Shown here in pieces: positions 3,469 through 53,207 of a stretch of DNA of 64,000 bases. The translations under genes were made by a program, and so were the position numbers. Positions within the stretch are counted from its first letter, which is position 1; every line of letters starts with the position of its first letter. The notes beneath the pieces were generated by a model that saw nothing but the letters and a program-made list of their open reading frames with translations, made no database searches and had not been told where the DNA came from. Source of the DNA: a virus; IMG/VR virus record IMGVR_UViG_3300044952_000182, positions 1,578 through 65,577 of that record, one strand, 5' to 3'.

Positions 3469-3559
3469 AAAAATATTTGGTAGTTTCAACTTTTTTACCT
3501 AGTTTTGCAATGAAGTAGAATTTAACCTAAATAGGTCAATCTGACCATGTTATACATCC

Positions 3560-4706: not shown

Positions 4707-5312
4707 ATGAACGTTGATAAATTAAAAGGGCACATTCCTGATGGGGTGATTGCTCAAATCCCTAGTGTAGTAGATAAGTTTGAGATCAATACACCTTTAC
4801 GTTTAGCCCATTTTCTAGCACAAACAGGACATGAATCTGGCGGATTCAAAGCTGTTACAGAAAACTTAAACTATGGAGCTGCAGGTCTTTCAAGTATCTT
4901 TAAGAAATACTTTACACCTGAAAGTGCTAAAGAGTATGAACGCAAACCTGAAAAAATAGCAAATATAGTATATGCAAACAGAATGGGGAATGGTAACCAG
5001 GCTTCTGGTGAAGGTTATAAATTTCGTGGAAGGGGTTTTATCCAACTAACAGGAAAGGATAACTACGCTGCTTTTGACAAGACAGTTGATGATGATATCA
5101 TAGCTAACCCAGATCTTGTAGCTACAAAGTACCCACTTTTATCTGCAGCTTGGTTCTTCCATAAGAATGGATTACACAAGATTGCTGACGAGGGGGCTAC
5201 AGATGCAGTGGTAACCAAGGTAACCAAGCGTGTTAATGGTGGAACAATTGGTCTACCAGATCGTATTAAACACTTTAATGAATACAATAATCTTTTAAAT
5301 GGTAGTATATAA
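4707..5312 (+). CDS. endolysin, glycoside hydrolase family 19 (chitinase-like lysozyme)
   Basis: LAHFLAQTGHESGGF ... YKFRGRGFIQLTGKDNY match the GH19 catalytic-core motifs (lAaFlAQ.gHESggf ... RGRGpiQLTg..NY). Confidence 0.85.
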   Translation: MNVDKLKGHIPDGVIAQIPSVVDKFEINTPLRLAHFLAQTGHESGGFKAVTENLNYGAAGLSSIFKKYFTPESAKEYERKPEKIANIVYANRMGNGNQASGEGYKFRGRGFIQLTGKDNYAAFDKTVDDDIIANPDLVATKYPLLSAAWFFHKNGLHKIADEGATDAVVTKVTKRVNGGTIGLPDRIKHFNEYNNLLNGSI

Positions 5313-5614
5313 TGGCAGCGAAAAAAGAAACAAATATATCAGCAAACCCTTTACCTATATCGTTTAAGGAGTTTGCTAAAAACCCAATAGTGGGCACCCT
5401 TTTCTTGGTGCTCATTGCTATTTCATACCTATACGTAGATGTTCGTACAACATTTAAAGAGCAGGCAACTTCTCAAAACGTACGTATAGATAAGGTAGAA
5501 ACTAGATTAGATAAGGTACAGGAAGCTTTGAGAGTTAGCGATAGCACTAAAGCTGTGACTACCACTCAGTTACAAACATTACAACAATTAGGGGCCATAA
5601 AAAAGTTACACTAA
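5312..5614 (+). CDS. i-spanin candidate (N-terminal TM, coiled-coil periplasmic domain)
   Basis: N-terminal TM segment IVGTLFLVLIAISYLYV followed by a charged helical region; directly after the endolysin. Confidence 0.45.
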   Translation: MAAKKETNISANPLPISFKEFAKNPIVGTLFLVLIAISYLYVDVRTTFKEQATSQNVRIDKVETRLDKVQEALRVSDSTKAVTTTQLQTLQQLGAIKKLH

Positions 5615-5943
5615 TGAGAACATTAGCATTTTTAATATTAATAAGTCTATATGGATGTCAATATACCACAGCTCAGCACGTTGATGAAACAGTTAAAGAA
5701 GATAAAGAGTTTGAACTTCTACTTAACAAAGTTTCAGAAAATAATAAAAATAGTGCAGCTATACAAGAAGGTGCTACCAAAGCCCAAACAAAAATAGTAA
5801 ACCAAGCTGTTAACCAAATTGTATCGTTAAAAGCAGAAGTTAGTTCATTAAAATCTGAATTAAATGATGTTAAAAGTAAACTTGATAGTAATCTTACTGA
5901 CACTGGTGTCAAATTTAAGTTATTGCCAGTATCCAATCGTTAA
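5614..5943 (+). CDS. o-spanin candidate (lipoprotein)
   Basis: Signal peptide plus lipobox-like LISLYGC; small periplasmic coiled-coil protein; ATGA-type overlap with the preceding gene. Confidence 0.45.
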   Translation: MRTLAFLILISLYGCQYTTAQHVDETVKEDKEFELLLNKVSENNKNSAAIQEGATKAQTKIVNQAVNQIVSLKAEVSSLKSELNDVKSKLDSNLTDTGVKFKLLPVSNR

Positions 5944-6253
5944 GAAAATAGGCAATGACTCTGTTGTAATAATGACCTTAAAACAGGCAACAACTATAAA
6001 TAGTACGTTTCAATCTAATCAAAATACAATTGATTCGTTGAAAACACATGTCTATATAAAAGATAGCATTATAAATAATAAAAAAACAACATATGATAGC
6101 TTATACAAAATTACAGATCAGTATAAGATAAGATATGATGAAAGACTAAACATGCGTATTCCTGTTCCTAAAGATAATAGTGGATGGGACTTTGCTCAAA
6201 AAATGGTATTGATTTTTGTTATAATATTACAATTCTCCACTATAAAACAATAA
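5864..6253 (+). CDS. hypothetical membrane/lipoprotein-like protein
   Basis: N-terminal signal-like VILLTLVSNLSYC and a C-terminal TM segment. Overlaps the 3-prime 80 nt of the o-spanin candidate in another frame, so the start is uncertain. Confidence 0.3.
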   Translation: MMLKVNLIVILLTLVSNLSYCQYPIVKKIGNDSVVIMTLKQATTINSTFQSNQNTIDSLKTHVYIKDSIINNKKTTYDSLYKITDQYKIRYDERLNMRIPVPKDNSGWDFAQKMVLIFVIILQFSTIKQ

Positions 6254-6254
6254 A

Positions 6255-6377
6255 ATGGCAAAAGCAGTAGGTAACTCAAGAAAAATCTCCTTTGGAAAAC
6301 GTAAAAGAGGCAAAGCTTCTAAGTTTAAAGGTCCTAAGGACAAGGCTACTAAGCCTTACAACAGGCAGGGTAAGTAA
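6255..6377 (+). CDS. small lysine-rich basic protein (40 aa)
   Basis: MAKAVGNSRKISFGKRKRGKASKFKGPKDKATKPYNRQGK; below the track's size cutoff; composition resembles the K-rich family at 9.8-11.7 kb. Confidence 0.35.
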   Translation: MAKAVGNSRKISFGKRKRGKASKFKGPKDKATKPYNRQGK

Positions 6378-6485: not shown

Positions 6486-6656
6486 ATGGCAATACCATCA
6501 AGACAGATAGGTTGGAGTACAACAGATAACTTGCTTTGGCAGATATCTAAGCAATTAGAATATTTGACACAAGTAACAGCTAATTGTTGTCCTACAACAA
6601 CTACCACAACTACAGTAGCACCAACAACTACTACTACGACTACACCTGCTCCTTAA
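6486..6656 (+). CDS. small CC-polyThr protein (shortest member of the mucin-like paralog family)
   Basis: MAIPSRQIGWSTTDNLLWQISKQLEYLTQVTANCCPTTTTTTTVAPTTTTTTTPAP. Shares the CC-(NY-V)-P-Thr-run and the terminal TPAP with ORFs 7702..7989 and 8002..8808. Confidence 0.4.
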   Translation: MAIPSRQIGWSTTDNLLWQISKQLEYLTQVTANCCPTTTTTTTVAPTTTTTTTPAP

Positions 6657-7701: not shown

Positions 7702-7989
7702 ATGGCCCAGAATACTAATCGCCCTCTCAAAGCTTATGTACGCTTTGATGGTACTGGAAGAATCGTTCCAAGCAGCCTAATCTTAAGAAGAAAGAAACCC
7801 AAGGTTGGTAAGTGGGTAGAGATCCCAGCTTATGAATGTTGCAATTACGTTCCTACAACAACTACTACAACCAGTAGTACAAGCACTAGCACAACTACTA
7901 GTACATCTACTAGCACAAGTACAAGTACAACAACAACTACTACGACTGCTACTCCAACAACAACAACAACAACAACTCCTGCACCTTAA
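7702..7989 (+). CDS. Thr/Ser-rich mucin-like protein (conserved N-domain + poly-Thr/(ST)n tail)
   Basis: N-terminus NRPLKAYVRFDGTGRIV...ECCNYVPTTTTTTSSTSTS is a paralog of the N-terminus of 8002..8808; ends ...TTTTTTPAP. Confidence 0.55.
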   Translation: MAQNTNRPLKAYVRFDGTGRIVPSSLILRRKKPKVGKWVEIPAYECCNYVPTTTTTTSSTSTSTTTSTSTSTSTSTTTTTTTATPTTTTTTTPAP

Positions 7990-8001
7990 AATTAAATAAA
8001 C

Positions 8002-8808
8002 ATGGCAAATAGCAACAATAGATTAAAAGCATATGTACGTTACGATGGTACAGGACGTGTCATAGCAGGTAGCTTGATCTTACAAAGATTCAAACCACAA
8101 GTGGGTAATTGGGTGGAGATAGATGCAAATGAGTGTTGTAATTATGTTCCAACAACCACTACAACTACGTCTTCTACTAGTACTAGTACAAGCACTTCTA
8201 CAAGCACTTCTACAAGTACTACAACAAGTACATCTACTTCTACAAGTACAAGCACTTCTACAAGTACAACAACAACAACAACAACAGCTGCACCAGCAGA
8301 ATGTCCTGAAGATTATACAATTGGTCAAGCTGCATTAGGTGGTAAAATTGCATACATCCTACAATCAGGTGACCCAGGATATGATTCAAATTTACAACAA
8401 GGATTAGTAGCTACAATAGCAGATATTTCAACAGGAGCAGCATGGGGATGTTTTGGAACAGCAATTGCAGGAGCAGATGGTACAGCTATTGGTACTGGTA
8501 ATCAAAATACTATAGATATTATGGCTGGTTGTGCTACAGCAGGTATTGCAGCTAGACTTTGTGGTGATTTAGTTCAGGGAGGATATTCTGATTGGTATTT
8601 ACCTAGTCAAGATGAATTAAATAAATTATACCTAAATAGAGTAGCTATTGGTGGTTTTACGAATAACGGCTATTGGAGTTCTACGGAGTACGCCACCATC
8701 TTCGCGTGGGACCAGAATTTCCTCACTGGCAGTCAGGACGGCAGCGATAAGACCTTCCCAAACTATGTTCGCGCCATTAGGGCTTTTGCATGTACAATTC
8801 CTAGATAA
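8002..8808 (+). CDS. mucin-like linker protein with C-terminal DUF1566 (Lcl C-terminal / Fib_succ_major-type) domain
   Basis: Same N-domain as 7702..7989, then a long T/(ST)n linker. C-terminal GGYSDWYLPSQDELNKLYLN...GYWSSTEY...YVRAIRAF matches the DUF1566 signature (DWRLPt.dEL..L ... yWSSt ... vRcVR). Confidence 0.65.
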   Translation: MANSNNRLKAYVRYDGTGRVIAGSLILQRFKPQVGNWVEIDANECCNYVPTTTTTTSSTSTSTSTSTSTSTSTTTSTSTSTSTSTSTSTTTTTTTAAPAECPEDYTIGQAALGGKIAYILQSGDPGYDSNLQQGLVATIADISTGAAWGCFGTAIAGADGTAIGTGNQNTIDIMAGCATAGIAARLCGDLVQGGYSDWYLPSQDELNKLYLNRVAIGGFTNNGYWSSTEYATIFAWDQNFLTGSQDGSDKTFPNYVRAIRAFACTIPR

Positions 8809-8823
8809 TAAAACTAAAACAGC

Positions 8824-9228
8824 ATGGCAAAATCATTATTCCCTGATGAGATGATGAAATCAGGAGAATTAAACTTGGAAACAATAGCTGGGAAGCTTAC
8901 ATATTTCCATGAGCAACTACATCTATTGCATTGGCAGACAACTAGTTATGCACAGCACAAGGCTCTTGGAAAGTTATATGAATATGTACAAGATTTTAAA
9001 GATGGTGTTGTTGAGAAGCTTATGGGTTATACAGGTAAACGTCCTGGTGCAATTAAACTAGAACAATTAACAGCTACAGATCCTAATGCAGTTGTCACAG
9101 CACTAATGGACTTCTCTAGTAACTTAAAAGCATATGGTGAGACTAATAAATTTCATGATATAGCTAATTTAGCTGATGCCTTAAGTGGTGAAGCTGCAAA
9201 AACTAAATACTTATTAACCTTGTCTTAA
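8824..9228 (+). CDS. hypothetical protein
   Basis: Compact MA-start ORF in a tightly packed plus-strand operon. Confidence 0.5.
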   Translation: MAKSLFPDEMMKSGELNLETIAGKLTYFHEQLHLLHWQTTSYAQHKALGKLYEYVQDFKDGVVEKLMGYTGKRPGAIKLEQLTATDPNAVVTALMDFSSNLKAYGETNKFHDIANLADALSGEAAKTKYLLTLS

Positions 9229-9518
9229 TGCAAATTAACAAGAAATTCTTTCCTGAGGTGATGCAAGATAATGAACTTGCTTATTTTGCTCACCTTGAAG
9301 GAATTATATCATCAGTTGATGAACTTTCTACGTTAGAGGTCACTAAGAACCCTCTATCGTATCACTTTAGATTAGCTCCATCATTGCCTATGTATAATGA
9401 GATGTTGTTACAGGAGATATTAAAACTACACAACCTGTTCAAGATTAAGCTAAACTTAAGTAAAAGTATTAAGAGTTCTGCAACTATAACATTTGAAATA
9501 AATTTGGAGGATACGTAA
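9228..9518 (+). CDS. hypothetical protein
   Basis: ORF with ATGA-type overlap to the previous gene. Confidence 0.45.
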   Translation: MQINKKFFPEVMQDNELAYFAHLEGIISSVDELSTLEVTKNPLSYHFRLAPSLPMYNEMLLQEILKLHNLFKIKLNLSKSIKSSATITFEINLEDT

Positions 9519-9558
9519 AACATACATATCTTCGTGACTAAACCAAAAATATAATTAT

Positions 9559-9831
9559 ATGGCAGAGATTATCAATTTCGAAGACGTTGCTAACCAAGCA
9601 TCTCAAGGTCCTAAGTTTGATCCAAAAAAGAAGTACACATGGTCTCCAGAGACAGTGTTTACAATTAATGGTCATGAATTTGGACTGTTATTGAACACAT
9701 TACGTTCTATTACAAGCACAAAGGAAGCACAGACTATTATCCTAGCACATGAAGCTGGTGATGCTCTTGAAAAGACATTATCAAGTGCAGTTGAAACAGG
9801 TATAGTGGTTGAACTTCCAGAAAACAAATAA
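9559..9831 (+). CDS. hypothetical protein
   Basis: MAEIINFEDV...; compact operon context. Confidence 0.45.
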   Translation: MAEIINFEDVANQASQGPKFDPKKKYTWSPETVFTINGHEFGLLLNTLRSITSTKEAQTIILAHEAGDALEKTLSSAVETGIVVELPENK

Positions 9832-9835
9832 GATT

Positions 9836-10201
9836 ATGGCAACAATTAAAAAAGCTCAATCTGGTATTACAAAAAGAGGAATGGCAGGTATGAAAAAACT
9901 TCCTTCTCTTAATCCTAAAATGGTTCCAGGTGAAATGACTGGTAAAATGTACAAGAAGTCTGAACTTGATGAGATTGGTAGAAAACAAGCTGCAGAATTA
10001 GATAAAGTTTCTATGCTTGGTAAAGCTGCTATGGCTAAGAAGAAGGCTCCTAAAGCTAAGAATGGTATGTTAAAGCGTGCTGATGGTTCATATTCTAAAA
10101 GAGGATTATGGGATAATATCAGGAATGCTAAAGGATCTGGAAAGAAGCCTACAGCTGCCATGTTAAAACAAGAGAAGAAAATTAAAGCTAAAACAAAATA
10201 A
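9836..10201 (+). CDS. lysine-rich basic protein, paralog family member 1
   Basis: Track ORF 9809 trimmed to MATIKKAQSG at 9836. Extremely K/A/G-rich. Shares KKAQ(S/D)G and KAKNG motifs with 11164..11532. Confidence 0.55.
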   Translation: MATIKKAQSGITKRGMAGMKKLPSLNPKMVPGEMTGKMYKKSELDEIGRKQAAELDKVSMLGKAAMAKKKAPKAKNGMLKRADGSYSKRGLWDNIRNAKGSGKKPTAAMLKQEKKIKAKTK

Positions 10202-10203
10202 TA

Positions 10204-10548
10204 ATGGCAAAGATTAAAAAATCTGGTATGGGTAGCATGTCAGGCTTAGATGCTTCTGATAAGCGTGTAGGTCCTATTGACCCACAAGGTGCTTGGACTA
10301 AAGTTCAAGAGGCTACTTTAGCAGGTGCTAGAATGAAAGCTACTTTAAAGAGAGATAAAGAACTAGGTGCTACTAAGATGGCAAAGAATGGACGTTCTGA
10401 AATGCAATTTGGTCTTAACAAGAAACAAAAAGCATCAAAAGAAGTTAATCCAGCAGGTTTTAGAAAAGCAGCATTAAAGCGTGAATCTGAACTAGTTGAG
10501 AAGCGTAGTGGTGAAATGGCTCCTAAGTTGAAATCTAAAAAGAAGTAA
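10204..10548 (+). CDS. lysine-rich basic protein, paralog family member 2
   Basis: MAKIKKSGMG...; K-rich low-complexity small protein; 2-nt gap to the previous gene. Confidence 0.55.
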   Translation: MAKIKKSGMGSMSGLDASDKRVGPIDPQGAWTKVQEATLAGARMKATLKRDKELGATKMAKNGRSEMQFGLNKKQKASKEVNPAGFRKAALKRESELVEKRSGEMAPKLKSKKK

Positions 10549-10551
10549 GAT

Positions 10552-10704
10552 ATGGCAACAGCTAAAAAGAATTGGATACAAGATGCTGTTAACCCTAAGC
10601 ATAAAGGTTATTGCACTCCTATGACCAAAGCTACATGTACTCCTAAGCGTAAAGCTTTAGCTAAGACATTCAAAGCAATGGGTAGAGCTAGAAAAGGAAA
10701 ATAA
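10552..10704 (+). CDS. small basic protein (50 aa)
   Basis: MATAKKNWIQDAVNPKHKGYCTPMTKATCTPKRKALAKTFKAMGRARKGK; below the track cutoff; exactly fills the gap between 10548 and 10706. Confidence 0.45.
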   Translation: MATAKKNWIQDAVNPKHKGYCTPMTKATCTPKRKALAKTFKAMGRARKGK

Positions 10705-10705
10705 T

Positions 10706-11143
10706 ATGGCTAAGATACCTAAGACAAAAGTATATAATCCACAGAAGGCTGAAGCCTATGTAGGTAAAGATGTTCTCAGAAATGGAGATACATTAAGTCC
10801 TATCAAAGGATCTATAACACCTGTTCCTAATGGTCATCTAATTAAAAAAGATGGTACATCGTTAAAGAATGGTGGTAAAACACCAGCCTGGACTCGTTCT
10901 GAAGGGAAAGATCCAAAAGGTGGTCTTAATAGAAAAGGTGTAGCTTCTTATAGAAGAGCTAATCCAGGATCTAAATTAAAGATGGCTGTTACAACCAAAC
11001 CTTCTAAACTTAAAGCTGGTTCTAAAGCAGCAGGTAGACGTAAGTCTTTTTGTGCTCGTATGTCAGGAGTCAAGGGTCCTGCAAAGAAACCTAATGGTGA
11101 ACCAACAAGAAAAACGTTAGCATTAAGAAAATGGAATTGTTAA
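10706..11143 (+). CDS. lysine-rich basic protein, paralog family member 3
   Basis: MAKIPKTKVY...; K/G-rich; C-terminus ...RKTLALRKWNC. Confidence 0.55.
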   Translation: MAKIPKTKVYNPQKAEAYVGKDVLRNGDTLSPIKGSITPVPNGHLIKKDGTSLKNGGKTPAWTRSEGKDPKGGLNRKGVASYRRANPGSKLKMAVTTKPSKLKAGSKAAGRRKSFCARMSGVKGPAKKPNGEPTRKTLALRKWNC

Positions 11144-11163
11144 AAAATTAAAATTATAATAAG

Positions 11164-11532
11164 ATGGCAAAGATGGTAAAAAAAGCTCAAGATGGTATGG
11201 AATCTCCTTTAAAATCAAGGATTGCACCAAAAGGACCAGCTTTAAGAGAAGGTCAAATAAAGCGTATGGATAGAATCTATAAATCTAATCCTGATAGAGC
11301 TATTAAAGTAGGTAAAAGAATGTTAAAAAGAGCTAATGCTAAAGCTGAACCTATTATGAAAAAAGGTGGTAAAGCTAAGAATGGTACATCATTTGGTATG
11401 TTATCAGTGAAAGCTGGTATTGACAAAAACCCAAAACCTACAGCAGCAGATAGAATTGCAGGTGCTAAGAAACAAGCTAAGTCTGGTACAAAAATGATGA
11501 AAAAAGGTGGCAAATGTAAAAATGGTTGCTAA
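11164..11532 (+). CDS. lysine-rich basic protein, paralog family member 4
   Basis: MAKMVKKAQDG...KAKNG...KKGGKCKNGC; clear paralog of 9836..10201. Confidence 0.55.
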   Translation: MAKMVKKAQDGMESPLKSRIAPKGPALREGQIKRMDRIYKSNPDRAIKVGKRMLKRANAKAEPIMKKGGKAKNGTSFGMLSVKAGIDKNPKPTAADRIAGAKKQAKSGTKMMKKGGKCKNGC

Positions 11533-11738
11533 TGAAATCAGCTAAAGTAAGCAGCAAACAAGCAAAGTCAGTAAAGCCAATGACTGCAGGGAAAGCTAAA
11601 GGATCAGGTACACCAAGACCAGCTCCAAAGGTGGCTCCTCCTAAACCAGTCAATGGTAATTATATGAAGGAAGCTGATACACCTCTTAGATTAAAAAGTA
11701 AGAATTGGCCTCTTAAACAAAAGAGGTTATCAAAATAA
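11526..11738 (+). CDS. lysine-rich basic protein, paralog family member 5
   Basis: MLMKSAKVSSKQAKSVKPMTAGKAKGSG...; K/P-rich. Confidence 0.45.
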   Translation: MLMKSAKVSSKQAKSVKPMTAGKAKGSGTPRPAPKVAPPKPVNGNYMKEADTPLRLKSKNWPLKQKRLSK

Positions 11739-11848
11739 CTGTCTTCTCCTGCATCCCTCGCTCTGCACGCTCAGGTTGTGGTAACTCAGTCTAGAATGAG
11801 CCCCTTAAAGAAGAATTTTCCCCCCTATAGTCTCAGTATTATAGGTCT

Positions 11849-11882
11849 AAAAAAGCCTCCCTTAAAAAAGGAGGCTTTTTTT
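11849..11882. terminator. bidirectional rho-independent terminator
   Basis: AAAAAGCCTCC-cttaaaaaa-GGAGGC-TTTTTTT: a 6-bp GC stem with an A-run upstream and a T-run downstream. Lies between the convergent plus-strand K-rich operon and the minus-strand gene 11881..12417. Confidence 0.6.
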
Positions 11883-12417
11883 ATGATACTAATGAATTGT
11901 ATACAGATAGTATCTTGTTTATGTAATGTTTATTCTTTGCTTTTTTATAACAGTTCTCAGCAAATACACCATCAGCATCTCTCCTTGATAGAACAAATCT
12001 TTCTTGATTCACTATAGATGTATGTACAATGAAGTTATGGCTATCTACATAGCTTAACTTAATTATGTTTCCATACAATCTATGTACACCACTGTTCCAC
12101 AGTTGATCAAATGATATAAAATCATTGTTTAAGTCTTTGATATTGTCCCACAACTCTGGATGCATAGTTGTATCATCATCGTTGAAATATATCCAACCCT
12201 CTGTTACTAGATTAATTGCTAGGTTTCTTTGTGCATTTCCACATACGCTTTTTACATCCTTTATACAATAAGCTTCACATTCAGGAATATCAGTTGGAAT
12301 AGTCTCTGAATCAAACACAACAATCCATCTGTAATTTTCTTTAGGTATGTTAATGCTTTCTGCAATTCTATGTAAAAAATGAGGTCTACTACAAGGAGTG
12401 ATAATATTTAAGAACAT
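11881..12417 (-). CDS. glycosyltransferase-like protein (GT-A-type, DDD motif)
   Basis: MFLNIITPCSRPHFL...WIYFNDDDTTMHPELW resembles the N-terminal beta strand and DxD region of GT-A fold transferases. Confidence 0.4.
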   Translation of the reverse strand: MFLNIITPCSRPHFLHRIAESINIPKENYRWIVVFDSETIPTDIPECEAYCIKDVKSVCGNAQRNLAINLVTEGWIYFNDDDTTMHPELWDNIKDLNNDFISFDQLWNSGVHRLYGNIIKLSYVDSHNFIVHTSIVNQERFVLSRRDADGVFAENCYKKAKNKHYINKILSVYNSLVS

Positions 12418-13061
12418 GGTTTGTCATTTCTATGTAAAACTAAAAGCTTATCATTGTCCCAACCTGGAGAAAACTTTAACTCATGATTAGCCATAATAAA
12501 TGTAGCAGATGAGAAGTATTCTTTAATGTGATCCATGGCTTCCATGTATCTGTTTTCATCTTCTCTAAGGAAGATATCTTCGATGATGATTATACCTCCT
12601 GGCTTAACACATTTGTATGCTATGTTTAAAAATCTAATCTGATCTTCAAACACGTGTGTAGAATCTTCTATGATTATGTCAAAGAAGTTATTTTTGTTGA
12701 ACACATTGTTAAGAGACTGTTCACTGGTAACATCTACATGAGTGTATGTAGCATTGTTAAGATTATCACGTATTCCTTTTTGCAACTTATCATCATGATA
12801 TTCATAACCAAACAATGTTGCATTAGGGAAGTACTCTCTCCAACATAACATAGAATGATTATCTAATATACCCACTTCACCTATTGTAATCTCTTTGTAA
12901 CGAAGATTTGAAAACAATAAGTTATATATGGAAGTGTAAGCATGTCTATGTAAATGAGGATGGTTATGATAAGGACACTTGTCTGTAGGATACTTAACAG
13001 CAAGTTTACACAAGTCTGTATTAGAATGTGTAGAGTCAATACTTAGTCTATTTATTTGCAT
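12408..13061 (-). CDS. class I SAM-dependent methyltransferase
   Basis: ITIGEVGILDNHSM (motif I-like) ... CVKPGGIIIIEDI (post-II); Rossmann-fold methyltransferase pattern. Confidence 0.65.
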   Translation of the reverse strand: MQINRLSIDSTHSNTDLCKLAVKYPTDKCPYHNHPHLHRHAYTSIYNLLFSNLRYKEITIGEVGILDNHSMLCWREYFPNATLFGYEYHDDKLQKGIRDNLNNATYTHVDVTSEQSLNNVFNKNNFFDIIIEDSTHVFEDQIRFLNIAYKCVKPGGIIIIEDIFLREDENRYMEAMDHIKEYFSSATFIMANHELKFSPGWDNDKLLVLHRNDKPCS

Positions 13062-13803
13062 TGATAAAATCTTTTAACAATTCTGAATAATCTTTATCCC
13101 AATGAGGATTTAGTTTAACTTCTCCTGTAGGAATCTTTCCTAAACGTCTTTCAGATTCAATGTGAGCACTGTGTCTTTGTATAGCATTGAGTTTTTTAGG
13201 ATGGTCTGTACCTTCTCCACTCATGTGGTATCCTCTTCCTCCCCACATGTAAAACCAGCTAGCTTCTTCTTTAGGTGGAGTAGCAAATAGTCTACCTCCA
13301 TGTTTATGTAGTCTTTCAATGAAAGTCATATCATATCCAGCATTTTCAAGAGGATGTCCCCCTATTGCTTTCCAAGCTGCTTTTCTAAACACAAGACCAG
13401 AATTACCTATCCAACCAACTTGCTCAATACCTGTAATGTGACACAACACACCTATTTGCCAATGAAGTATGTTAACTTCTTCTGTCATGTATTTAGCTAC
13501 ATTCTTTAAATGGTGTGGTAGAGCTACGTCATCATCGTCCCATTGACATATAATATCTCCTTGACACAGTTCTGTAGCAAAGTTTTCTTTCTCTCCTATG
13601 GTCTCAAAGGTCTTAACTAGGTTAACTATCTTAACTTGAGGATGCTCAAATATAAGAGTTTGTAAGGCATAGTCATTTACTATGATAAGTTCGCACTTAT
13701 CTGCAGGGTAGTCCTGCTTGAGGAAAGACTCAATGCTCTCCTCAAGCGTACTAACCCTTCCATAAGTTATACACTTACATGATATAAATGGATGTGAGTT
13801 CAT
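13048..13803 (-). CDS. glycosyltransferase family 2
   Basis: ISCKCITYGRVSTLEESIESFLKQDYP..CELIIVNDYA and the QWDDDDV DxD-type motif are typical of GT2. Confidence 0.7.
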   Translation of the reverse strand: MNSHPFISCKCITYGRVSTLEESIESFLKQDYPADKCELIIVNDYALQTLIFEHPQVKIVNLVKTFETIGEKENFATELCQGDIICQWDDDDVALPHHLKNVAKYMTEEVNILHWQIGVLCHITGIEQVGWIGNSGLVFRKAAWKAIGGHPLENAGYDMTFIERLHKHGGRLFATPPKEEASWFYMWGGRGYHMSGEGTDHPKKLNAIQRHSAHIESERRLGKIPTGEVKLNPHWDKDYSELLKDFINANK

Positions 13804-14352: not shown

Positions 14353-14613
14353 TTAATTTTGATTTGGGTTATTTAATATTGCCATTCTTTGGACTAAAAC
14401 ACCTTCATACATTTGCATAGATGCTAATTGCTCTTCTAGTAAACGTGAATGTCTGTAGTTTAATGCTTTAAATTCAGAATTCATTGTTATGAAGATTTTT
14501 AACTTTTCAATCTTCTCTGATAATTGAAGTCTTTCAATGTGAAGTTTAGATTGTAAAGGTAAATCTACTTCTTGTTTTTCTTCTGGAACATTATCCCATT
14601 CTGATGCAATCAT
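14353..14613 (-). CDS. hypothetical protein
   Basis: Compact ORF. Confidence 0.4.
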   Translation of the reverse strand: MIASEWDNVPEEKQEVDLPLQSKLHIERLQLSEKIEKLKIFITMNSEFKALNYRHSRLLEEQLASMQMYEGVLVQRMAILNNPNQN

Positions 14614-22736: not shown

Positions 22737-23020
22737 TTCTCTGTTATTTTAGTGGGTTCCCAAAGATAGGATAGCAAATGATATGGCCTATCACCAAACT
22801 TTGGTACAGCAATATACTGTCTGCCAACACATTTTGTTTTGAGTTCTTCTGGGGTGAGAGTCATCACCTTACCTTTGTATTCAATTTCATAACTCTCTTT
22901 CTTTTGAATACATTCTCTTACACTGTGATCAATTAGATCAACATACTTCTTGTCATGAAGTTTTAAGATTGTCCTTTTCATGTTTATCTGCTTTTGTTTT
23001 TTTGTCGTGGCATTTTTCAC
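22733..23020 (-). CDS. hypothetical protein
   Basis: 95-aa basic protein. Confidence 0.4.
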   Translation of the reverse strand: MKNATTKKQKQINMKRTILKLHDKKYVDLIDHSVRECIQKKESYEIEYKGKVMTLTPEELKTKCVGRQYIAVPKFGDRPYHLLSYLWEPTKITEK

Positions 23021-23429
23021 ATAAGACTTGTAAGTTGTCTACCTCACAGAATAGTCTCTCTACAAATCCTGGTAAGTCTTTTGAACTCATCAAACTACCT
23101 GCAGGATGGATGTGATCAACATTAATCTTCTTCTCTATAAACCAATTCTTGCACACATTGCATTGATACTCATACTTTTGTCTCTTGTTTACACCCTTGT
23201 ACAATCTGCGTGCTTTAAGCTTGCATTCTGTAATAGGCTTCCAAAACCTGGACTTCTGTCTGAGAGCACTGCGTATGAAACTCCAGAATGCTGATTCTGT
23301 CATAGTTCCAGCACATCTTGGTTTACTTACTACTCTTCTAGGTTTTTTAGAGATTCTTTTTGTTGCGTTTTTTATCATAATATATATATAATCCCAGGGT
23401 GTTACCCCTGGGAATACAAATTTAATCAA
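22953..23429 (-). CDS. HNH endonuclease
   Basis: CNVCKNWFIEKKINVDHIHPAGSL ... CEKCHDKK: an HNH motif (CxxC ... H-N ... H) with the second zinc-binding pair. Confidence 0.6.
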   Translation of the reverse strand: MIKFVFPGVTPWDYIYIMIKNATKRISKKPRRVVSKPRCAGTMTESAFWSFIRSALRQKSRFWKPITECKLKARRLYKGVNKRQKYEYQCNVCKNWFIEKKINVDHIHPAGSLMSSKDLPGFVERLFCEVDNLQVLCEKCHDKKTKADKHEKDNLKTS

Positions 23430-48264: not shown

Positions 48265-48583
48265 AAAAACTACATATGTAAATACAGAGCTTGAATGGGC
48301 TGAGTCACAACTCGTTTCATGGAAAGCTTATGTAAATGCTAACCCACTGCATGAATTGAAAGATAGGATTGAGTGGAAACCTACAGCAAAAGGAGGACTA
48401 TTACCTATGGTGATAGCATCTATTGAAGCTCAAGGTAAATTTGTCCAAGAGACAATGAAAAACTATCTAGCATTGATAGAGGTGGTAGATAAGCTAAGAA
48501 ACATGGAAGAAGCTAAGGTGGAAGTGAGAGGTAAAGGTGAGTTGTCAGGAGCTGCTGCTGAGTTCTTAGCAAATAGAAAATAA
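48251..48583 (+). CDS. small terminase subunit candidate
   Basis: 110-aa ORF (trimmed to MATIKKTTYV) directly upstream of and overlapping (TAATG) the large terminase. Assigned by position only. Confidence 0.3.
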   Translation: MATIKKTTYVNTELEWAESQLVSWKAYVNANPLHELKDRIEWKPTAKGGLLPMVIASIEAQGKFVQETMKNYLALIEVVDKLRNMEEAKVEVRGKGELSGAAAEFLANRK

Positions 48584-50622
48584 TGGAACTACAAAGTATA
48601 GACTACAAAGACTGGTTTATAAATCAGAAGCGTATTCCTGATAAAGAATCTCAGGAGTGTAAGCCATTCTTTGACTTCCACAGAGAGCTATGCTTAAATG
48701 GAGCTATGATGGGAGGTACATATATTAACCCTTTCCTTTACTGGCACCTTAATATATGGCATACAGAAGTAGATATAATAGATAGTTATGGGAGGATTGC
48801 ACAGAAATATGCCAATCCCCTATTGAGAGATAATGAATGGCTTGTGACGAACGAAATTGACAGAGCTCAACAAGAAAAGAGGGGCTTAGTCATTCTAGGT
48901 ATTAGACGTTTTGCCAAGTCTGTTCTTGAAGCATCCTATATTGCATGGGGTGCGACCTTTGATGAAAACAGTCAGAATATCATAGCAGGCTTAAATGCCC
49001 CAGATATAAAACTGATTACTGATAAGATTGACAAAGGATTGAATTTCATTCCTGAGTATTGGAGGTGGCAGAGAATTGAGGATAACTGGAAGAACCAAGT
49101 GACTCTAGGTATAAAGACCAAGTCTGGTGAACGTATCCCATTCTCTTCCATTCTAATACGTAACCTTGATGAAGGTAATAATGAAGAGGCAATTGCAGGT
49201 ACAAAACCACGTAAATTAATTATAGATGAGATTGGTAAAGGGAATTTTCTTAGAGGCTTACAAGCTGCTATTCCAGGTTTCACTACACCCTATGGCTGGG
49301 GATGTAGTCCCATTCTTACTGGTACAGGTGGGGACATGAAGAAATTCATGGATGCCAAAAGTTTAATGTTTGACGTAGACAACTTTAATTTCCTTACATA
49401 TAATAATGCTAAAGATGACAAACGTATACATGGTTTGTTTATCTCCCATAAATATAGAATGGAGGCAAAGGAGGATTCTACACTAGGAGAATATTTAAAC
49501 GAGCCAACTAGTTCAGACTTACATAATGTTAAAATGCTTGTAAGTAATGAAGATAAGGCTACAGAAATTACTAACAAAAACCTAGAAAGACTTAAGAAAG
49601 CTGGTGATCGTATAGCCTATTTAAAAGAAAAGATGTACTATCCTCAAGAAGTAGATGATATCTTCTTGAACGAGGACACAAATATATTTGACATTGAGAG
49701 TGCTAAGAGACAGAAGACTAGACTGTTACAACAAGAAAGAACAGGAACTCCTGTTATATTGTTTAATGATGGAGAGAAGATAGCTCATGAGTTTACAGAT
49801 AAACTACCTATATCTAACTTCCCTCTAAAGAACTCAGACTTAAAAGAAGCACCTATTGTTATATATGAATTCCCTATAGATAATCCACCTTATGGATTGT
49901 ATGTAGCAGGAGTCGATCCATATAGACAAGGTAAGTCTGCATATTCAACTTCACTTGGATCTGTATACATATACAAGAGGATGCATGAAATTAGTGGTGA
50001 GAAGTATCAAGATATGTTTGTAGCTTCGTATTGTGCAAGACCTGATAAGAAAGAAACTTGGGAAGAACAAGCTAGACTTCTTATAAAGTATTATAACGCT
50101 AGAGCTCTTTGTGAGAATGATGATATATCCTTTATTGAATATATGAAAGCTAAAGGAGATGCTCACTTTTTAGAAAGACAACCTGACTGGTTGAAAGAGA
50201 TTGTACCAAATACCACTGTAAAAAGAGATTATGGTATTCATCGTTCAAGTCAGAAGATAATTGACTATCTTCACACTTGTTTAAAGAAGTATATGGAATC
50301 TCCAATCTTTGTAGAAAAGAATGATGCAGGAGAAGTGATTAGAGAAGTGTTAGGTGTGAGTAAGATATTTGATCCTGTATTGCTTGAAGAGATTATTCAA
50401 TATAATGATTCAGGTAACTTTGATAGAATCATAGCTGCAGAGTTAGCCATAGCACAAGCTTTAAAGATGGACCCAATAATGGGTAAGATAGGTGGAACAA
50501 GTGATGAACGAGTTGCTTCTATGTTTAAGAAGAAGAGAGGAAACATACTCTTCACTGACTCTAGAAATAACATGTTTGGACAATCAAAAAATAAATATAA
50601 ACGAAATAAATTGTTTTCATAA
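48583..50622 (+). CDS. terminase large subunit
   Basis: 679 aa immediately upstream of the portal. Deviant Walker A region LVILGIRRFAKSV, Walker B KLIIDEIG; acidic residues in the C-terminal half consistent with the RNase H-like nuclease domain. Confidence 0.7.
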   Translation: MELQSIDYKDWFINQKRIPDKESQECKPFFDFHRELCLNGAMMGGTYINPFLYWHLNIWHTEVDIIDSYGRIAQKYANPLLRDNEWLVTNEIDRAQQEKRGLVILGIRRFAKSVLEASYIAWGATFDENSQNIIAGLNAPDIKLITDKIDKGLNFIPEYWRWQRIEDNWKNQVTLGIKTKSGERIPFSSILIRNLDEGNNEEAIAGTKPRKLIIDEIGKGNFLRGLQAAIPGFTTPYGWGCSPILTGTGGDMKKFMDAKSLMFDVDNFNFLTYNNAKDDKRIHGLFISHKYRMEAKEDSTLGEYLNEPTSSDLHNVKMLVSNEDKATEITNKNLERLKKAGDRIAYLKEKMYYPQEVDDIFLNEDTNIFDIESAKRQKTRLLQQERTGTPVILFNDGEKIAHEFTDKLPISNFPLKNSDLKEAPIVIYEFPIDNPPYGLYVAGVDPYRQGKSAYSTSLGSVYIYKRMHEISGEKYQDMFVASYCARPDKKETWEEQARLLIKYYNARALCENDDISFIEYMKAKGDAHFLERQPDWLKEIVPNTTVKRDYGIHRSSQKIIDYLHTCLKKYMESPIFVEKNDAGEVIREVLGVSKIFDPVLLEEIIQYNDSGNFDRIIAAELAIAQALKMDPIMGKIGGTSDERVASMFKKKRGNILFTDSRNNMFGQSKNKYKRNKLFS

Positions 50623-53207
50623 TGGCAATTATAAGGTACACGAAAGACGCAACAATAAGATATGCTTATCTGAATATCTTTCCTGATCAGTTTAAAACTG
50701 AGAAGGAAAAGATGGATGAAAGCTGGATAAAGAATTCAATGGACTACTTTGCAAACAAAGCTTATGCTGAGTATGTCAAAGCTAGAGATACATTTGTAAA
50801 AAACTATGATCTTGTTAAAGGTATTTTAAGAAGAGAAGATTTCTTTGTAGAACCAGAAGTTAGAAGTTTTACAGATGTGCTTACATCAGATCTTGAACTT
50901 CCTGCTTATGTAAAACATTATTCTATAATGACCACTCCTATTAATGAGTTAGTAGGAGAGATATCAAAGCGACCTGATGCTTTCCTAGTAAAAGCATTTG
51001 ATGATGATAGTCAAGCTGAAGAGTTACAATTTAAGACTCAGATACTAAATGAATATGTAATTAATCAAGCAAAACAAAAGATAGAAGAACAAGCAATGGC
51101 TCAAGGTCAAGAAATTGATCCTGAAGAGTTAGATCAAATGACCATGGAACAAGTGAAAGATGAAATAGATAACTATACATCTGTAGCAGAGAAATGGGCA
51201 AATCATATTCTTTCAGCTCAAAAGATTGAATTTAATCTTAAAGAAAAAGGAGAAGATTCATTTAGAGACTTATTGATATCTGCTAGAGAGTTCTTTCATA
51301 TCTATGAGGACAACTCTAAGCTAGGATTTAATATAGAAGTAGCTAATCCAAAGAACACTTGGTTCTTAACTACTCCAGATAGAAAGTGGATATCTGATAC
51401 TACAGGACGTGCACAAGGAGCGTATGCTGCTGGCACTGTACAAGTGTTAGAATTATCTGAAATTATTGAAGCAGTTCCTGACTTAACTAAAGATGAGATT
51501 GATCACTTACGTAGTTCATTACAAGACTATGGATTGATTAATGTACGTGAATCTAACTTAGGTAATCCTAATGCTGTTCCAGGTAATGACTCTATTCAAT
51601 ACGATACATATGATCCATTAGTATTACAAACTAGAATGCTTATTGAATCAGAAATGAAAGAGAACAATGATGGTCTTAAGGACTTCTTAGGACTTACATC
51701 TAACGTATCTTCATTTGGTTATAAGTATGTTGTGGTAAGAGCTTATTGGATTTCTAAAAAGAAGATAGGTAAAGTAATATATACAGATGAGATGGGTAAT
51801 GAACAATCTATGTTAGTAGATGAGAATTATAAGTCTGGAACTATTCCTACACAAGAATCATTAGAGTGGGGATGGATTAACCAATGGTATCAAGGTATTA
51901 AGATTGGTCCAGATATCTACCATATCAAACCTTATAAGTTATTACCTTATTGTCCAATCATTGGTCAAACGTTTGAAGTTAAGAATACAGAGGCTAAGAG
52001 CTTAGTAGATATGATGAAACCTTTCCAAGTTATATACAATGTTTGTATGAACCAATTGTATAAGTTACTTGAGAAGGAAGTAGGTAAGGTGCAGTTAATG
52101 TCTATTAGACACATTCCTATTCCTAAGGATGGTGATGCTCAAGATGCATTAGATATCTGGGAAATGGAAGCACGTAATAGAGGAGTTGTGTTTGTTGATG
52201 ATAGTCCTGAGAACTTAAAGAGTCCATCTAGCTTCAACCAATATACAAGCTTAGATCTTACACGTACTACAGAGATCCAAGCAAGATATACTCTAGCACA
52301 ACAAATAAAGAATGAATGTTGGGAATTGATTGGTATGTCTAAGCAAAGACTTGGATCTGTGTCTGCTAGTGAATCAGCCACAGGTACCAATGCAGCTATT
52401 ACACAATCTTATTCTCAAACAGAACCTTTGTTTGTAGCTCATGAATATATCATGGGTCAGTTATACCAAGCTGTTATTGATGCAGCTTTATATGTAGAAG
52501 CTAAGAAGCCACAATCAACTATATCTTATATCACTAATGAAGGTGAATCTGCTTTTGTAACTGTAAATGGTACAGACTTAAGATTTAGAGATTTAAAAGT
52601 TTATTTAACTAACAGACCTGAAGATAGAAAAGCATTTGAGGAAATTAGAGGATTGTCTCAAGCAGTTCTTCAAAATGGTGGTAGCTTACATGATGTAATT
52701 GAATTGTATAGTACTAACTCCATGAGACAAATGAAGAAGGTATTTAAGACTCTTAAAGAAAGACAAGAGCAATTGCAAAATACTCAAATGCAACAAAAGC
52801 AACAAGAACTTGAACAACAACAACAAATAGGTCAAGCTCAATTAGCTCAGGCTCAACAACAAGCTGAAGAGAAAATAGCTAATGATAATTACAATGCTGA
52901 GTTAGATAGAATTAATAAGAAAGAGATTGCCCTTATTGCAGCTGAATCTAAAGCAGGACCTTTATCAGATATAGATGCATCTGGAGCTCCTGATGTTTTA
53001 GAAATTGAAAAATTATCAGCAGAAAAAGATAATGCATCTAGAGAATATCAAATGAAGACGCAAGATGCTATGACTAAAAATAGACTTGCTTCTGAGAAAT
53101 TACAATTAGAGAAAGAAAAATTACAAGTAGCTAGAGAAAACCAAGCAAATGATTTAGCTGTTGCTAAAGAAAATGCTAAAGGAAGATCTACTAAAAAACC
53201 TAAATAA
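50622..53207 (+). CDS. portal protein
   Basis: 861 aa between the terminase and the scaffold/capsid genes; Q-rich coiled C-terminal region; TAATG coupling to terL. Confidence 0.65.
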   Translation: MAIIRYTKDATIRYAYLNIFPDQFKTEKEKMDESWIKNSMDYFANKAYAEYVKARDTFVKNYDLVKGILRREDFFVEPEVRSFTDVLTSDLELPAYVKHYSIMTTPINELVGEISKRPDAFLVKAFDDDSQAEELQFKTQILNEYVINQAKQKIEEQAMAQGQEIDPEELDQMTMEQVKDEIDNYTSVAEKWANHILSAQKIEFNLKEKGEDSFRDLLISAREFFHIYEDNSKLGFNIEVANPKNTWFLTTPDRKWISDTTGRAQGAYAAGTVQVLELSEIIEAVPDLTKDEIDHLRSSLQDYGLINVRESNLGNPNAVPGNDSIQYDTYDPLVLQTRMLIESEMKENNDGLKDFLGLTSNVSSFGYKYVVVRAYWISKKKIGKVIYTDEMGNEQSMLVDENYKSGTIPTQESLEWGWINQWYQGIKIGPDIYHIKPYKLLPYCPIIGQTFEVKNTEAKSLVDMMKPFQVIYNVCMNQLYKLLEKEVGKVQLMSIRHIPIPKDGDAQDALDIWEMEARNRGVVFVDDSPENLKSPSSFNQYTSLDLTRTTEIQARYTLAQQIKNECWELIGMSKQRLGSVSASESATGTNAAITQSYSQTEPLFVAHEYIMGQLYQAVIDAALYVEAKKPQSTISYITNEGESAFVTVNGTDLRFRDLKVYLTNRPEDRKAFEEIRGLSQAVLQNGGSLHDVIELYSTNSMRQMKKVFKTLKERQEQLQNTQMQQKQQELEQQQQIGQAQLAQAQQQAEEKIANDNYNAELDRINKKEIALIAAESKAGPLSDIDASGAPDVLEIEKLSAEKDNASREYQMKTQDAMTKNRLASEKLQLEKEKLQVARENQANDLAVAKENAKGRSTKKPK

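Follow-up and report, generated by a model that had tools for sequence, protein, structure and literature searches.

The window analysed here is a stretch of 64,000 nucleotides spanning positions 1,578 to 65,577 of the IMG/VR virus record IMGVR_UViG_3300044952_000182, and this work concerns an array of six small, lysine-rich open reading frames (ORFs), o1 to o6, at positions 9836-11738 of its plus strand, together with a seventh candidate, o0. The six consecutive genes encode proteins of 50-145 aa and are tightly coupled: the intergenic gaps from o1 to o6 measure 2, 3, 1, 20 and -1 nt, and 4 nt separate o1 from the gene upstream (Table 1). The identical six-gene set was called on near-identical contigs by the independent JGI (Joint Genome Institute) and Logan callers, in agreement with the array described in the first-pass annotation. 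The highly basic composition noted there is also confirmed, as lysine plus arginine (K+R) make up 24-28% of o1-o6, with isoelectric points (pI) of 10.4-11.05, versus 11.6 +/- 4.1% and a median pI of 5.84 for the 52 ORFs of at least 120 aa in the rest of the window. Among all window ORFs of at least 40 aa, K+R of at least 22% combined with a pI above 10.3 is found only in o0-o6 and in a 48-aa ORF at 5651-5797, which lies in another frame inside the 5614-5943 ORF and which we take to be spurious. This composition far exceeds the expectation from AT-rich DNA, and the observation is real. Another basic ORF, at 22953-23378 on the minus strand (141 aa, pI 9.97, K+R 24%), is located in the minus-strand replication block.

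All six array ORFs and o0 are under purifying selection and conserved as coding sequences. Using orthologues from four related IMG/VR genomes, the ratio of nonsynonymous to synonymous substitution rates (dN/dS) was 0.23-0.52 for o1, 0.21-0.27 for o2, 0.13-0.40 for o3, 0.22-0.28 for o4, 0.15-0.27 for o6 and 0.08-0.09 for o0; overall, the values for o0-o6 were mostly 0.08-0.52, with o5 as an outlier (0.92) in one comparison. Across diverged loci, the modules defined below show a proportion of nonsynonymous differences (pN) of only 0.07-0.16, with that of synonymous differences (pS) saturated at 0.62-0.69. Module A, for instance, has 46 nucleotide versions among all fetched loci (pS 0.67, pN 0.13), and the 61 nucleotide versions of module F encode only 18 protein versions (pS 0.62, pN 0.07). 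Since the synonymous sites are saturated and the proteins have barely changed, conservation acts on the protein, and recent transfer or a conserved RNA or DNA element is ruled out as the source of the module identity.

The six genes had been read as a multi-copy family of paralogs, with o1 and o5 as clear paralogs, and this reading did not survive. Tandem paralogy was rejected by BLASTP with and without composition correction and by hhalign at the level of modules. In a seven-sequence database (o0-o6), composition-corrected BLASTP gave E=0.03 for the best pair and E=3.6 for o1 versus o5. From coverage plots and alignments of homologues, we delimited eight modules (A-H, Table 1), whose trimmed alignments gave hhalign probabilities of at most 3.1% in 28 of 28 pairs. 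A match of 98.7% between the full o1 and o5 family alignments seems to stem mostly from the C-terminal tail in a few fused rows, and trimmed modules A and F gave 0.4%. To judge by these sequence comparisons, the array is a set of at least eight unrelated mini-domains, not of tandem paralogs. An alternative in which the genes are paralogous, protamine- or H1-like low-complexity DNA condensers, multiplied by local duplication with their copy number under selection, can point to the K/A/G/P-rich composition, to the MA.KKAQ.G start common to two genes and to the KAKNG and KKGGK motifs. We nevertheless consider it very improbable: no significant pairwise or profile-profile similarity was found between genes or modules, the o1-o5 match of the full alignments being attributed to the fused-row tail; every gene has an orthologous family of its own, recovered as a distinct module in 48-110 of the 160 loci; low complexity does not describe the modules, which are specific sequences; and the common motifs belong to a leader and to junctions, not to homologous bodies.

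Table 1. Array genes, modules and neighbouring features (positions in the window).
Feature	Position	Strand	Description
o1	9836-10201	+	121 aa, pI 10.5
o1 leader	9836-9865	+	MATIKKAQSG; variable middle follows
o1 junction	10052-10066	+	KAKNG; precedes module A
Module A	10067-10198	+	o1 aa 73-121, C-terminal; MLKRADGSYSKRGLWDNIRNAKGSGKKPTAAMLKQEKKIKAKTK
o2	10204-10548	+	114 aa, pI 10.4; degenerate leader MAKIKKSGMG; junction AKNG after module B; C-terminal tail less conserved
Module B	about 10225-10389	+	o2 aa ~8-62; GS.SGL.AS.KRVGP.DP.GAWTKVQE.TLAGA...LGATKM
o3	10552-10704	+	50 aa, pI 10.7
Module C	10552-10704	+	whole o3; W.Q.AV....KG.CTP.TK..CT.KRKALAKTFK.M; conserved Cys pair
o4	10706-11143	+	145 aa, pI 10.8
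Module D	about 10793-10873	+	o4 aa ~30-56, N-terminal part; ITPVPNGHLIKKDGTSLKNGG
o4 junction			LKNGGKTP; between modules D and E
Module E	10904-11134	+	o4 aa 61-145; Pfam DUF6321
o5	11164-11532	+	122 aa, pI 10.7
o5 leader	11164-11196	+	MAKMVKKAQDG
Module F0		+	o5 aa ~28-56; GQIKRMDRIYKSNPDRAIKVGKRMLKR
o5 junction	11356-11385	+	MKKGGKAKNG; between F0 and F
Module F	11392-11469	+	o5 aa 77-102; FGMLSVKAGIDKNPKPTAADRIAGAK
o5 C-terminus	11497-11529	+	MKKGGKCKNGC; invariant
o6	11532-11738	+	68 aa, pI 11.05; ATG shares 1 nt with the o5 stop codon
Module G	within 11532-11738	+	o6; KP.KAPKV.PPKP.NGNYMKEADT.LRLKSK.WP.KQKRLSK
o0	6255-6377	+	40 aa, pI 11.7; directly 3' of the lysis cassette, 3.5 kb upstream of the array
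Module H	6255-6377	+	o0; basic mini-protein without leader
Lysis cassette	4707-6253	+	glycoside hydrolase family 19 (GH19; chitinase class I-like) endolysin, then three small ORFs with transmembrane (TM)/lipoprotein signals
Adjacent genes	7702-7989 and 8002-8808	+	common N-terminal domain MA.N.NR.LKAYVR.DGTGR...CCNYVPTTTT; long Thr/Ser-rich linkers
DUF5856 gene	8824-9228	+	phrog_858; Dps-like, annotated 'starvation-inducible'
Intervening genes	9228-9518 and 9559-9831	+	between the DUF5856 gene and o1
Hairpin	11849-11881		GCCUCC...GGAGGC with A-run and U-run flanks; plus block meets convergent minus block

The modules are strongly conserved. Module A is near-invariant in an alignment of 58 homologues, and the o5 family has invariant columns at F77-V82, G85, D87, N89, P90 and others, and at G116-C122. 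Cysteine pairs recur, since the o5 family ends in GKCKNGC, DUF6321 in ..WNC, and module C contains CTP.TKPGCTG.

The motifs that recur along the array are found at the starts of genes and between modules. A leader of the form M-x(1-6)-K-K-[A/S]-[Q/E]-x-G starts 52 distinct genes, which carry modules A, B, C, E, F or F0, or no defined module. Its codons vary synonymously (AAA/AAG, GCT/GCA/GCC/GCG, CAA/CAG, GGT/GGA), which indicates selection on the peptide. Within the window, the KKAQxG leader is carried by o1 and o5. The N-termini of o1-o6 read MATIKKAQSG, MAKIKKSGMG, MATAKKNWIQ, MAKIPKTKVY, MAKMVKKAQDG and MKSAKVSSKQ, respectively, so that the MA(K/T)..KKAQ.G start described for the whole array is complete in the first and fifth genes but degenerate in the second and absent from the other three. 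Internal modules are almost always preceded by a junction, conserved as a peptide like the leader, of the form [M/K/L]-[K/R]-x-G-G(-S/K-T), as in KMKAGG|MIKRADG, MKSGGSTP|AW or MAKGGST|FGML, and the junctions of the window are KAKNG (o1), AKNG (o2), LKNGGKTP (o4) and two MKKGGK (o5). KKAQxG and [MKL][KRM]xGG[KST] were found nowhere else in the 64 kb, considering all six frames. The KAKNG and KKGGK motifs are best described as leader and inter-module junction anatomy, not as traces of homologous gene bodies.

The distribution of the modules was explored in 160 IMG/VR loci fetched using o1 and o5 as queries, of which 101 match o1, 48 o2, 50-51 o3, 110 o4, 93 o5, 50 o6 and 17-21 o0. Around 51-63 of these loci, on contigs of roughly 100-125 kb, share the synteny of the window, and a protein identical to o5 is found on 21 contigs, the longest of 117,586 bp. 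The remaining loci (~97) have one to three modules in other phage backgrounds. In related genomes, the modules are stand-alone (45-66 aa), reordered or fused (D-E, D-A, B-C, B-F), always in arrays, and at least 25 gene orders or fusion states were counted among ~48 related loci (~100-125-kb genomes). The genomes thus retain the set of modules but differ in how these are ordered and fused. Module G ends every arrangement that contains a recognised copy of it (23 of the 25 listed). D, encoded separately from E in many loci, nearly always immediately precedes E or forms a fusion with it. Homologues of module C are either stand-alone genes of 46-53 aa or the C-terminus of proteins of 106-155 aa, and module B (147 representative clusters for o2) is mostly the C-terminal end of proteins of 100-270 aa. 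The homologues of o0 keep the same relative position in related loci. This gene, proposed as a seventh member, is indeed basic, conserved and coding but has no leader; together with its module H, it may belong to the basic set.

Module A was also found on contigs of ~20, 82 and 112 kb binned with Bacteroidota metagenome-assembled genomes (MAGs; Bacteroidia, Sediminibacterium, Sphingobacteriales), and in MAGs named Aquiluna and Polynucleobacter, which we take to be freshwater taxa; one record comes from Lake Lanier. Given these freshwater-type occurrences, the module set appears to be aquatic rather than strictly marine.

Homologous protein clusters number 2037 for o1, 1783 for o5 and at least 8000 for o4. 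These thousands of clusters, together with the presence of DUF6321 in 537 isolate phage records, contradict the initial impression that such a family is unusual for a phage. None of the 2037 o1 homologues is named and only one has a Pfam domain, PF19846, which is precomputed on all 120 o4 homologues listed; none of the 1783 o5 homologues has a Pfam domain, and their sole name beyond 'hypothetical protein' is the JGI annotation 'lambda repressor-like predicted transcriptional regulator' (P0231). Indeed, residues 67-143 of o4 match positions 1-72 of the 72 in DUF6321 (PF19846; E=6.2e-21, 75.3 bits versus a cut-off of 28.5), and no Pfam match to this family was obtained in o1, o2, o3, o5, o6 or o0. 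At E<=1, the Pfam matches of the array proteins were limited to DUF6321 and to chance-level ones below the curated cut-offs (DUF4890, Gas_vesicle_C), and the consensuses of the seven modules other than E retrieved nothing at E<=10; the suggested link to DUF3008 found no match in these scans. NCBIfam gave nothing at E<=1, and the histone H1, protamine, bacterial histone-like and ribosomal protein models of Pfam and NCBIfam had no match. In PHROGs, o4 matched phrog_4689, phrog_727, phrog_3477 and others; the consensuses of A, B, C, D, F, G and H had no match, and likewise gp43 of the pelagiphage Eistla, of which only gp44 matched. DUF6321 and the cyanophage family T4-GC119 are already catalogued as unknowns, and our literature search found no description of DUF6321 or of small basic lysine-rich marine phage proteins. 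Nor did we find an earlier description of the conserved multi-module set, the way it is fused, split and shuffled, the KKAQxG leader, the K-x-G-G junction or their occurrence in a crAss-like phage.

On its gene content, the window is that of a crAss-like phage. It encodes in one block a major capsid protein (MCP) of the crass type (Crass_capsid, 55175-56728; E=1.2e-27, 97 bits versus a cut-off of 27), a P22-like portal (P22_portal, 50622-53207; E=8.7e-15) and the large terminase (TerL, 48583-50622; phrog_6681, E=5e-85).

The relatives of the modules in other phages are repeatedly located in head or packaging clusters. The DUF6321 records listed are almost all from phages of marine hosts, including T4-like and T7-like cyanophages, pelagiphages and OM43 phages. 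In Eistla, three tiny basic ORFs (gp43, gp44 and gp45) stand between the scaffold and the capsid genes; gp45 is a DUF6321 protein and gp44 (KKGLYANIHAKRKR...) is A-like by eye only. As a homologue of module A, gp44 was rejected, since the hhalign match covers 11 columns, GL(W/Y)(D/A)NI, with a non-significant probability of 4.6%. This gp44-type module is fused to DUF6321 in phrog_11180 and phrog_28131. In the cyanomyoviruses P-SSM2, S-SM1, S-E7 and ACG-2014i, the DUF6321 gene is located between or after gp15 and gp16, and T4-GC119 of the cyanomyoviruses, a basic mosaic of many mini-modules with DUF6321 at the C-terminus, usually adjoins gp15 or gp16. Similar positions are seen in the uncultured phages: in loci of the L021 type, the genes carrying modules E, F and C come after a major head protein (phrog_11589, E=5e-33), a 338-aa gene and two small genes, in that order; TerL is followed by an F-module protein, a 679-aa protein and the portal in L062; and L110 has modules A and E at a distance of 2.5 kb on the upstream side of its portal. 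In other uncultured phages, module A is found inside 1000-1570-aa proteins together with further mini-modules that have x-G-G at their boundaries, and these giant genes are directly 3' of 'virion structural protein' genes (phrog_28748, E=5e-36; phrog_15100, E=3e-163).

Two cyanophage proteins are the most informative for the location of the gene products. In the work of Sullivan et al. 2010 (PMC3037559 Table S8), purified S-SM1 virions yielded 13 peptide counts for the T4-GC119 'Structural protein'. This protein, SSM1_115, has 495 aa, a pI of 9.9 and a C-terminal DUF6321 (E=4e-32). In P-SSM7, the 172-aa PSSM7_194 combines DUF6321 with an A-like module, KKGLWDNIHAKRKRG, recognised by the hidden Markov model (HMM) of module A at E=5e-5; the same HMM gave E=0.004 against P-GSP1, both values being obtained in a small search space. 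A possible D-like stretch of PSSM7_194 was noted by eye, with a non-significant D-HMM value (E=0.09). PSSM7_194 starts with MKTYSQFIEE, identical in 7 of 10 residues to MKTYQEFIAE of T4 ipII and ipIII. The functional positions of this T4 capsid-targeting sequence (CTS), for both targeting and processing, are 4, 7, 8 and 10 (PMC9026906), and all four are kept in PSSM7_194.

T4-GC119 and related cyanomyovirus proteins (loci L161, L166-L170, L178, L188-L190) carry further basic mini-modules arranged as beads on a string and absent from Pfam, such as KDACYHKVKSRYSVWPSAYASGALVKCRK, CWKGY..KG.K.KGGK.VPNCV and LRDWFSKSKSSDGKPGWVQLGGKYAGKPC. MEP402 and HTVC034P (L164, L165) have other families of small basic ORFs beside DUF6321, none of them in Pfam, among them NKAGNYTKP..RK.LF..IKA....G.WSARKAQ.LAK.YKA.GGGY and an 82-aa protein, SLKAWGRQKWRTKSGK...

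The reading that we favour, by analogy and at about even chances, is that the array encodes leader-tagged internal head proteins that would be bound to the packaged DNA. Among the functions guessed in the first-pass annotation, a DNA-associated or ejected internal virion protein is thus the best supported, by way of other phages, while the protamine- or H1-like low-complexity character was wrong. The reading draws on the head or packaging placement of the modules in several lineages, on the virion detection in S-SM1, on the T4-type CTS and on the T4 precedent, as well as on the basic composition and close gene coupling, the common leader, the cargo space of crassvirus capsids and the conserved Dps-like neighbour of the array. 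The array proteins would be made late, with the lysis and other plus-strand genes, and would either enter the procapsid or be packaged along with the genome. Inside, they would form internal 'core' proteins on the packaged DNA, with their lysines neutralising phosphate charge, and on infection they would probably exit together with the DNA. The leader M-x(1-6)-KKAQ-x-G would be a sorting and/or cleavage tag like the CTS of T4, and the [M/K/L]-[K/R]-x-G-G junctions would act either as flexible linkers or as processing sites that free modules of 25-85 aa. We infer that the proteins are packaged in this phage, bind DNA and are ejected, and likewise what the leader does and any cleavage.

The T4 head contains ~1000 internal protein molecules, whose lysines contact DNA phosphates and which are diverse, with only the targeting sequence in common (PMC3012670); they are embedded in the packaged DNA and ejected with it (PMC3012670, PMC9026906). 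The array resembles T4 IPI, IPII and IPIII in that these are small, basic and lysine-rich, with unrelated bodies and one ~10-residue N-terminal peptide in common, and in that genes stand side by side (ipII, ipIII). The combination of unrelated small basic proteins with one common N-terminal peptide is present here at 52 gene starts, and a relative of modules A and E, the cyanophage PSSM7_194, carries a nearly T4-like CTS. In contrast, none of the six window N-termini is a T4-type CTS: the leader M..KKAQxG is unlike MKTYQEFIAE and has no L/I-x-E cleavage site. The window phage is also crAss-like, with no prohead protease seen among the window proteins scanned and no sequence homology to the T4 proteins, and the latter are less basic (pI 9.3-9.5, K+R 18-19%). 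Moreover, the T4 internal proteins are little conserved among related phages (PMC3012670, PMC9026906), whereas the window modules are near-invariant.

T4-GC119 is closer in its parts, as it has the DUF6321 end, a mosaic of basic mini-modules and, in some members, an A-like module and possibly, by eye, a D-like one, and o4 has a bona fide DUF6321. It differs in consisting of single long polypeptides (172-839 aa) with most modules absent from the window, whose own modules are split over six small genes with the KKAQxG leader; in the isolate phages searched, nothing corresponds to modules B, C, F, G and H. The runs of 34-101-aa lysine-rich ORFs in Eistla (gp43-45), HTVC034P, MEP402 and P-GSP1 are similar too, with DUF6321 and a GL(Y/W)(A/D)NI(H/R) module, although their other members belong to different families and all are annotated as hypothetical.

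A second parallel is found outside the phages. The adenoviral proteins VII, V and Mu are highly basic and condense the genome inside an icosahedral capsid, and their precursors are trimmed by adenain at (M/I/L)XGG|X. The window junction [M/K/L]-[K/R]-x-G-G is reminiscent of this Gly-Gly site. However, its hydrophobic residue falls at P5 instead of P4, a register that departs from the adenain consensus; the adenoviral core proteins are arginine-rich, not lysine-rich, and not homologous; and no adenain-like protease was seen among the window proteins scanned, so that cleavage here is purely something we infer. With regard to the crassviruses themselves, their capsids have about 5 MDa of cargo space and the stored proteins are ejected ahead of the DNA (PMC10172136). 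The window phage, with its Crass_capsid MCP, compares with phiCrAss001 in having a crass-type capsid with a large cargo zone, but the phiCrAss001 cargo (gp45, gp46 and RNA polymerase (RNAP) subunits) has sizes of 60-277 kDa, is not markedly basic as reported and is encoded in the structural/RNAP block.

A number of observations weigh against the internal-head interpretation. The array is at least 35 kb away from the portal and MCP genes within the window, outside the head module, and its neighbours are lysis, glycosyltransferase and Lcl_C genes. Its codon usage shows no clear match to the capsid genes (log-likelihood ratio of structural-like versus early-like, +0.014 per codon), and no protease-annotated match was obtained with PHROGs on 8 ORFs of the structural block or with Pfam on ~20 large ORFs, scans limited to the window, that is, to ~55% of a ~117-kb genome. 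The virion proteome of phiCrAss001 lists no small basic proteins (PMC10172136), and the T4-GC119 homologue of Syn9 was undetected in virions (PMC3037559). SSM1_115 is a 495-aa mosaic that has only DUF6321 in common with o4. A clear targeting sequence is seen in only one cyanophage homologue, most N-termini being different; HTVC034P, P-SSM4 and P-SSM7 have their DUF6321 gene away from the head genes. tblastn of o1, o5 and the set o2, o3, o6 and o0 against 50,697 isolate phage records found no match, and modules A-D and F-H are without a hit there. Structural comparisons give little help: phmmer and profile searches of the PDB with four proteins returned nothing better than E=0.12; the AlphaFold2 (AF2) models of o1 and o4 are helical and of low confidence, with predicted local distance difference test (pLDDT) scores of 64.6 and 54.0; and Foldseek of the o4 AF2 model against the PDB gave no meaningful match (best E=3.7). 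Finally, near-invariant sequences of 26-45 aa are not needed in a non-specific polycation, and this near-invariance suggests a specific partner, which would not necessarily be DNA. We keep the internal-head interpretation at even chances because the array is far from the head genes, the proteomics concerns only DUF6321 and the near-invariant modules imply a specific partner.

Such a partner could also be met in the infected cell. The array proteins may be unpackaged nucleic-acid- or ribosome-binding factors, involved in the compaction or shielding of phage DNA or of the host nucleoid, in RNA chaperoning or in translation tuning in the manner of ribosomal proteins, with their conservation imposed by a host or phage partner. 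We regard this as possible but unlikely. Their size and charge resemble those of small ribosomal or nucleoid proteins, and strong protein conservation across phages of hosts as unrelated as SAR11, cyanobacteria, OM43 and Bacteroidota points to a specific and widely conserved partner; the location outside the head module, near a Dps-like gene, and that of several isolate DUF6321 genes among non-structural small genes are in line with it. Nevertheless, no ribosomal, histone-like or nucleoid match was found in Pfam or NCBIfam, nor in the PDB for the four proteins, and the module genes stand repeatedly between scaffold and MCP, TerL and portal, or gp15 and gp16. In addition, the DUF6321 protein in S-SM1 virions and the capsid-targeting-like start of the P-SSM7 homologue speak against an in-cell role.

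The surroundings of the array bring in a third explanation, that of lysis-associated cationic peptides, disruptin- or antimicrobial-like, which would attack the outer membrane or the wall late in infection. The GH19 endolysin and the TM/lipoprotein ORFs are part of the same plus-strand block, the basic o0 directly follows them, and the array products are small and cationic. However, these have few hydrophobic residues, are not obviously amphipathic (by eye) and have no signal peptide or TM segment, and 3.5 kb separate the array from the lysis genes. As the modules are found elsewhere in head or packaging clusters or in structural-module proteins of more than 1000 aa, we find this explanation hardly credible.

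Immediately upstream of o1, the genes at 8824-9831 are syntenic with the array in ~51 related loci and are probably co-transcribed with it. A Bacteroidota-type promoter had been placed in front of the array, but neither this type nor a sigma-70-like one was found directly upstream; the nearest plus-strand match, TTTG..TAnnTTTG, is at 3476-3507. Downstream, the 11849-11881 hairpin is likely a bidirectional intrinsic terminator, as predicted from its sequence; RNA folding of 11730-11885 gave -36.3 kcal/mol (z = -2.9), and a consensus terminator scan missed the hairpin.

In the wider vicinity, the genes at 7702-7989 and 8002-8808, just upstream of the array, are genuine paralogs, the second of which ends in an Lcl_C domain, and there is a third Thr-rich ORF at 6486-6656. 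Glycosyltransferase and methyltransferase genes lie at 11881-13803, and the minus-strand region ~14353-14613 has a precomputed Pfam match to 'Sequestin' (PF21825) on near-identical contigs. The minus-strand segment 44510-44667 matches the Rfam tRNA model (36.7 bits; gathering score 29). It has a long variable arm and, around the anticodon loop, an insertion of 85 nt, and may represent a tRNA that is interrupted or contains an intron; no tRNA was called in the window by ARAGORN. The GC content is 0.48 in 63001-64000 versus about 0.34 elsewhere in the window.

If the array does encode internal DNA-bound head proteins, pelagiphages, cyanophages and aquatic crAss-like phages, which rank among Earth's most abundant viruses, would share an unannotated modular capsid complement, of which Pfam lacks seven of the eight modules and PHROGs contains only module E and an A-like relative. 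More speculatively, and with considerable doubt on our part, the unrelated crAss-, T4-, T7- and Zobellviridae-like lineages of aquatic tailed phages might share a so far unnoticed toolkit of core proteins with at least eight exchangeable, near-invariant basic mini-domains. In the crAss-like lineage, each domain would be tagged by the KKAQxG leader and set apart by K-x-G-G junctions, signals for capsid sorting and proteolytic processing, and the peptides of 25-85 aa set free would organise the packaged genome and accompany it into the cell. By analogy, such a toolkit would be the phage counterpart of adenoviral VII and Mu or of the T4 internal proteins, made of specific modules instead of generic polycations. 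Packaged basic proteins would bear on the DNA charge balance during packaging in nutrient-poor waters; cyanophages also carry the polyamine gene speD. They would also bear on what enters the cell with the genome, for example for protection from host nucleases, and on how cargo is sorted into crass-type capsids, into which foreign proteins could be loaded with the conserved leader as a practical tag. Even with another function, these modules give annotation a large set of families: the clusters found for three proteins range in number from about 1,800 to more than 8,000.

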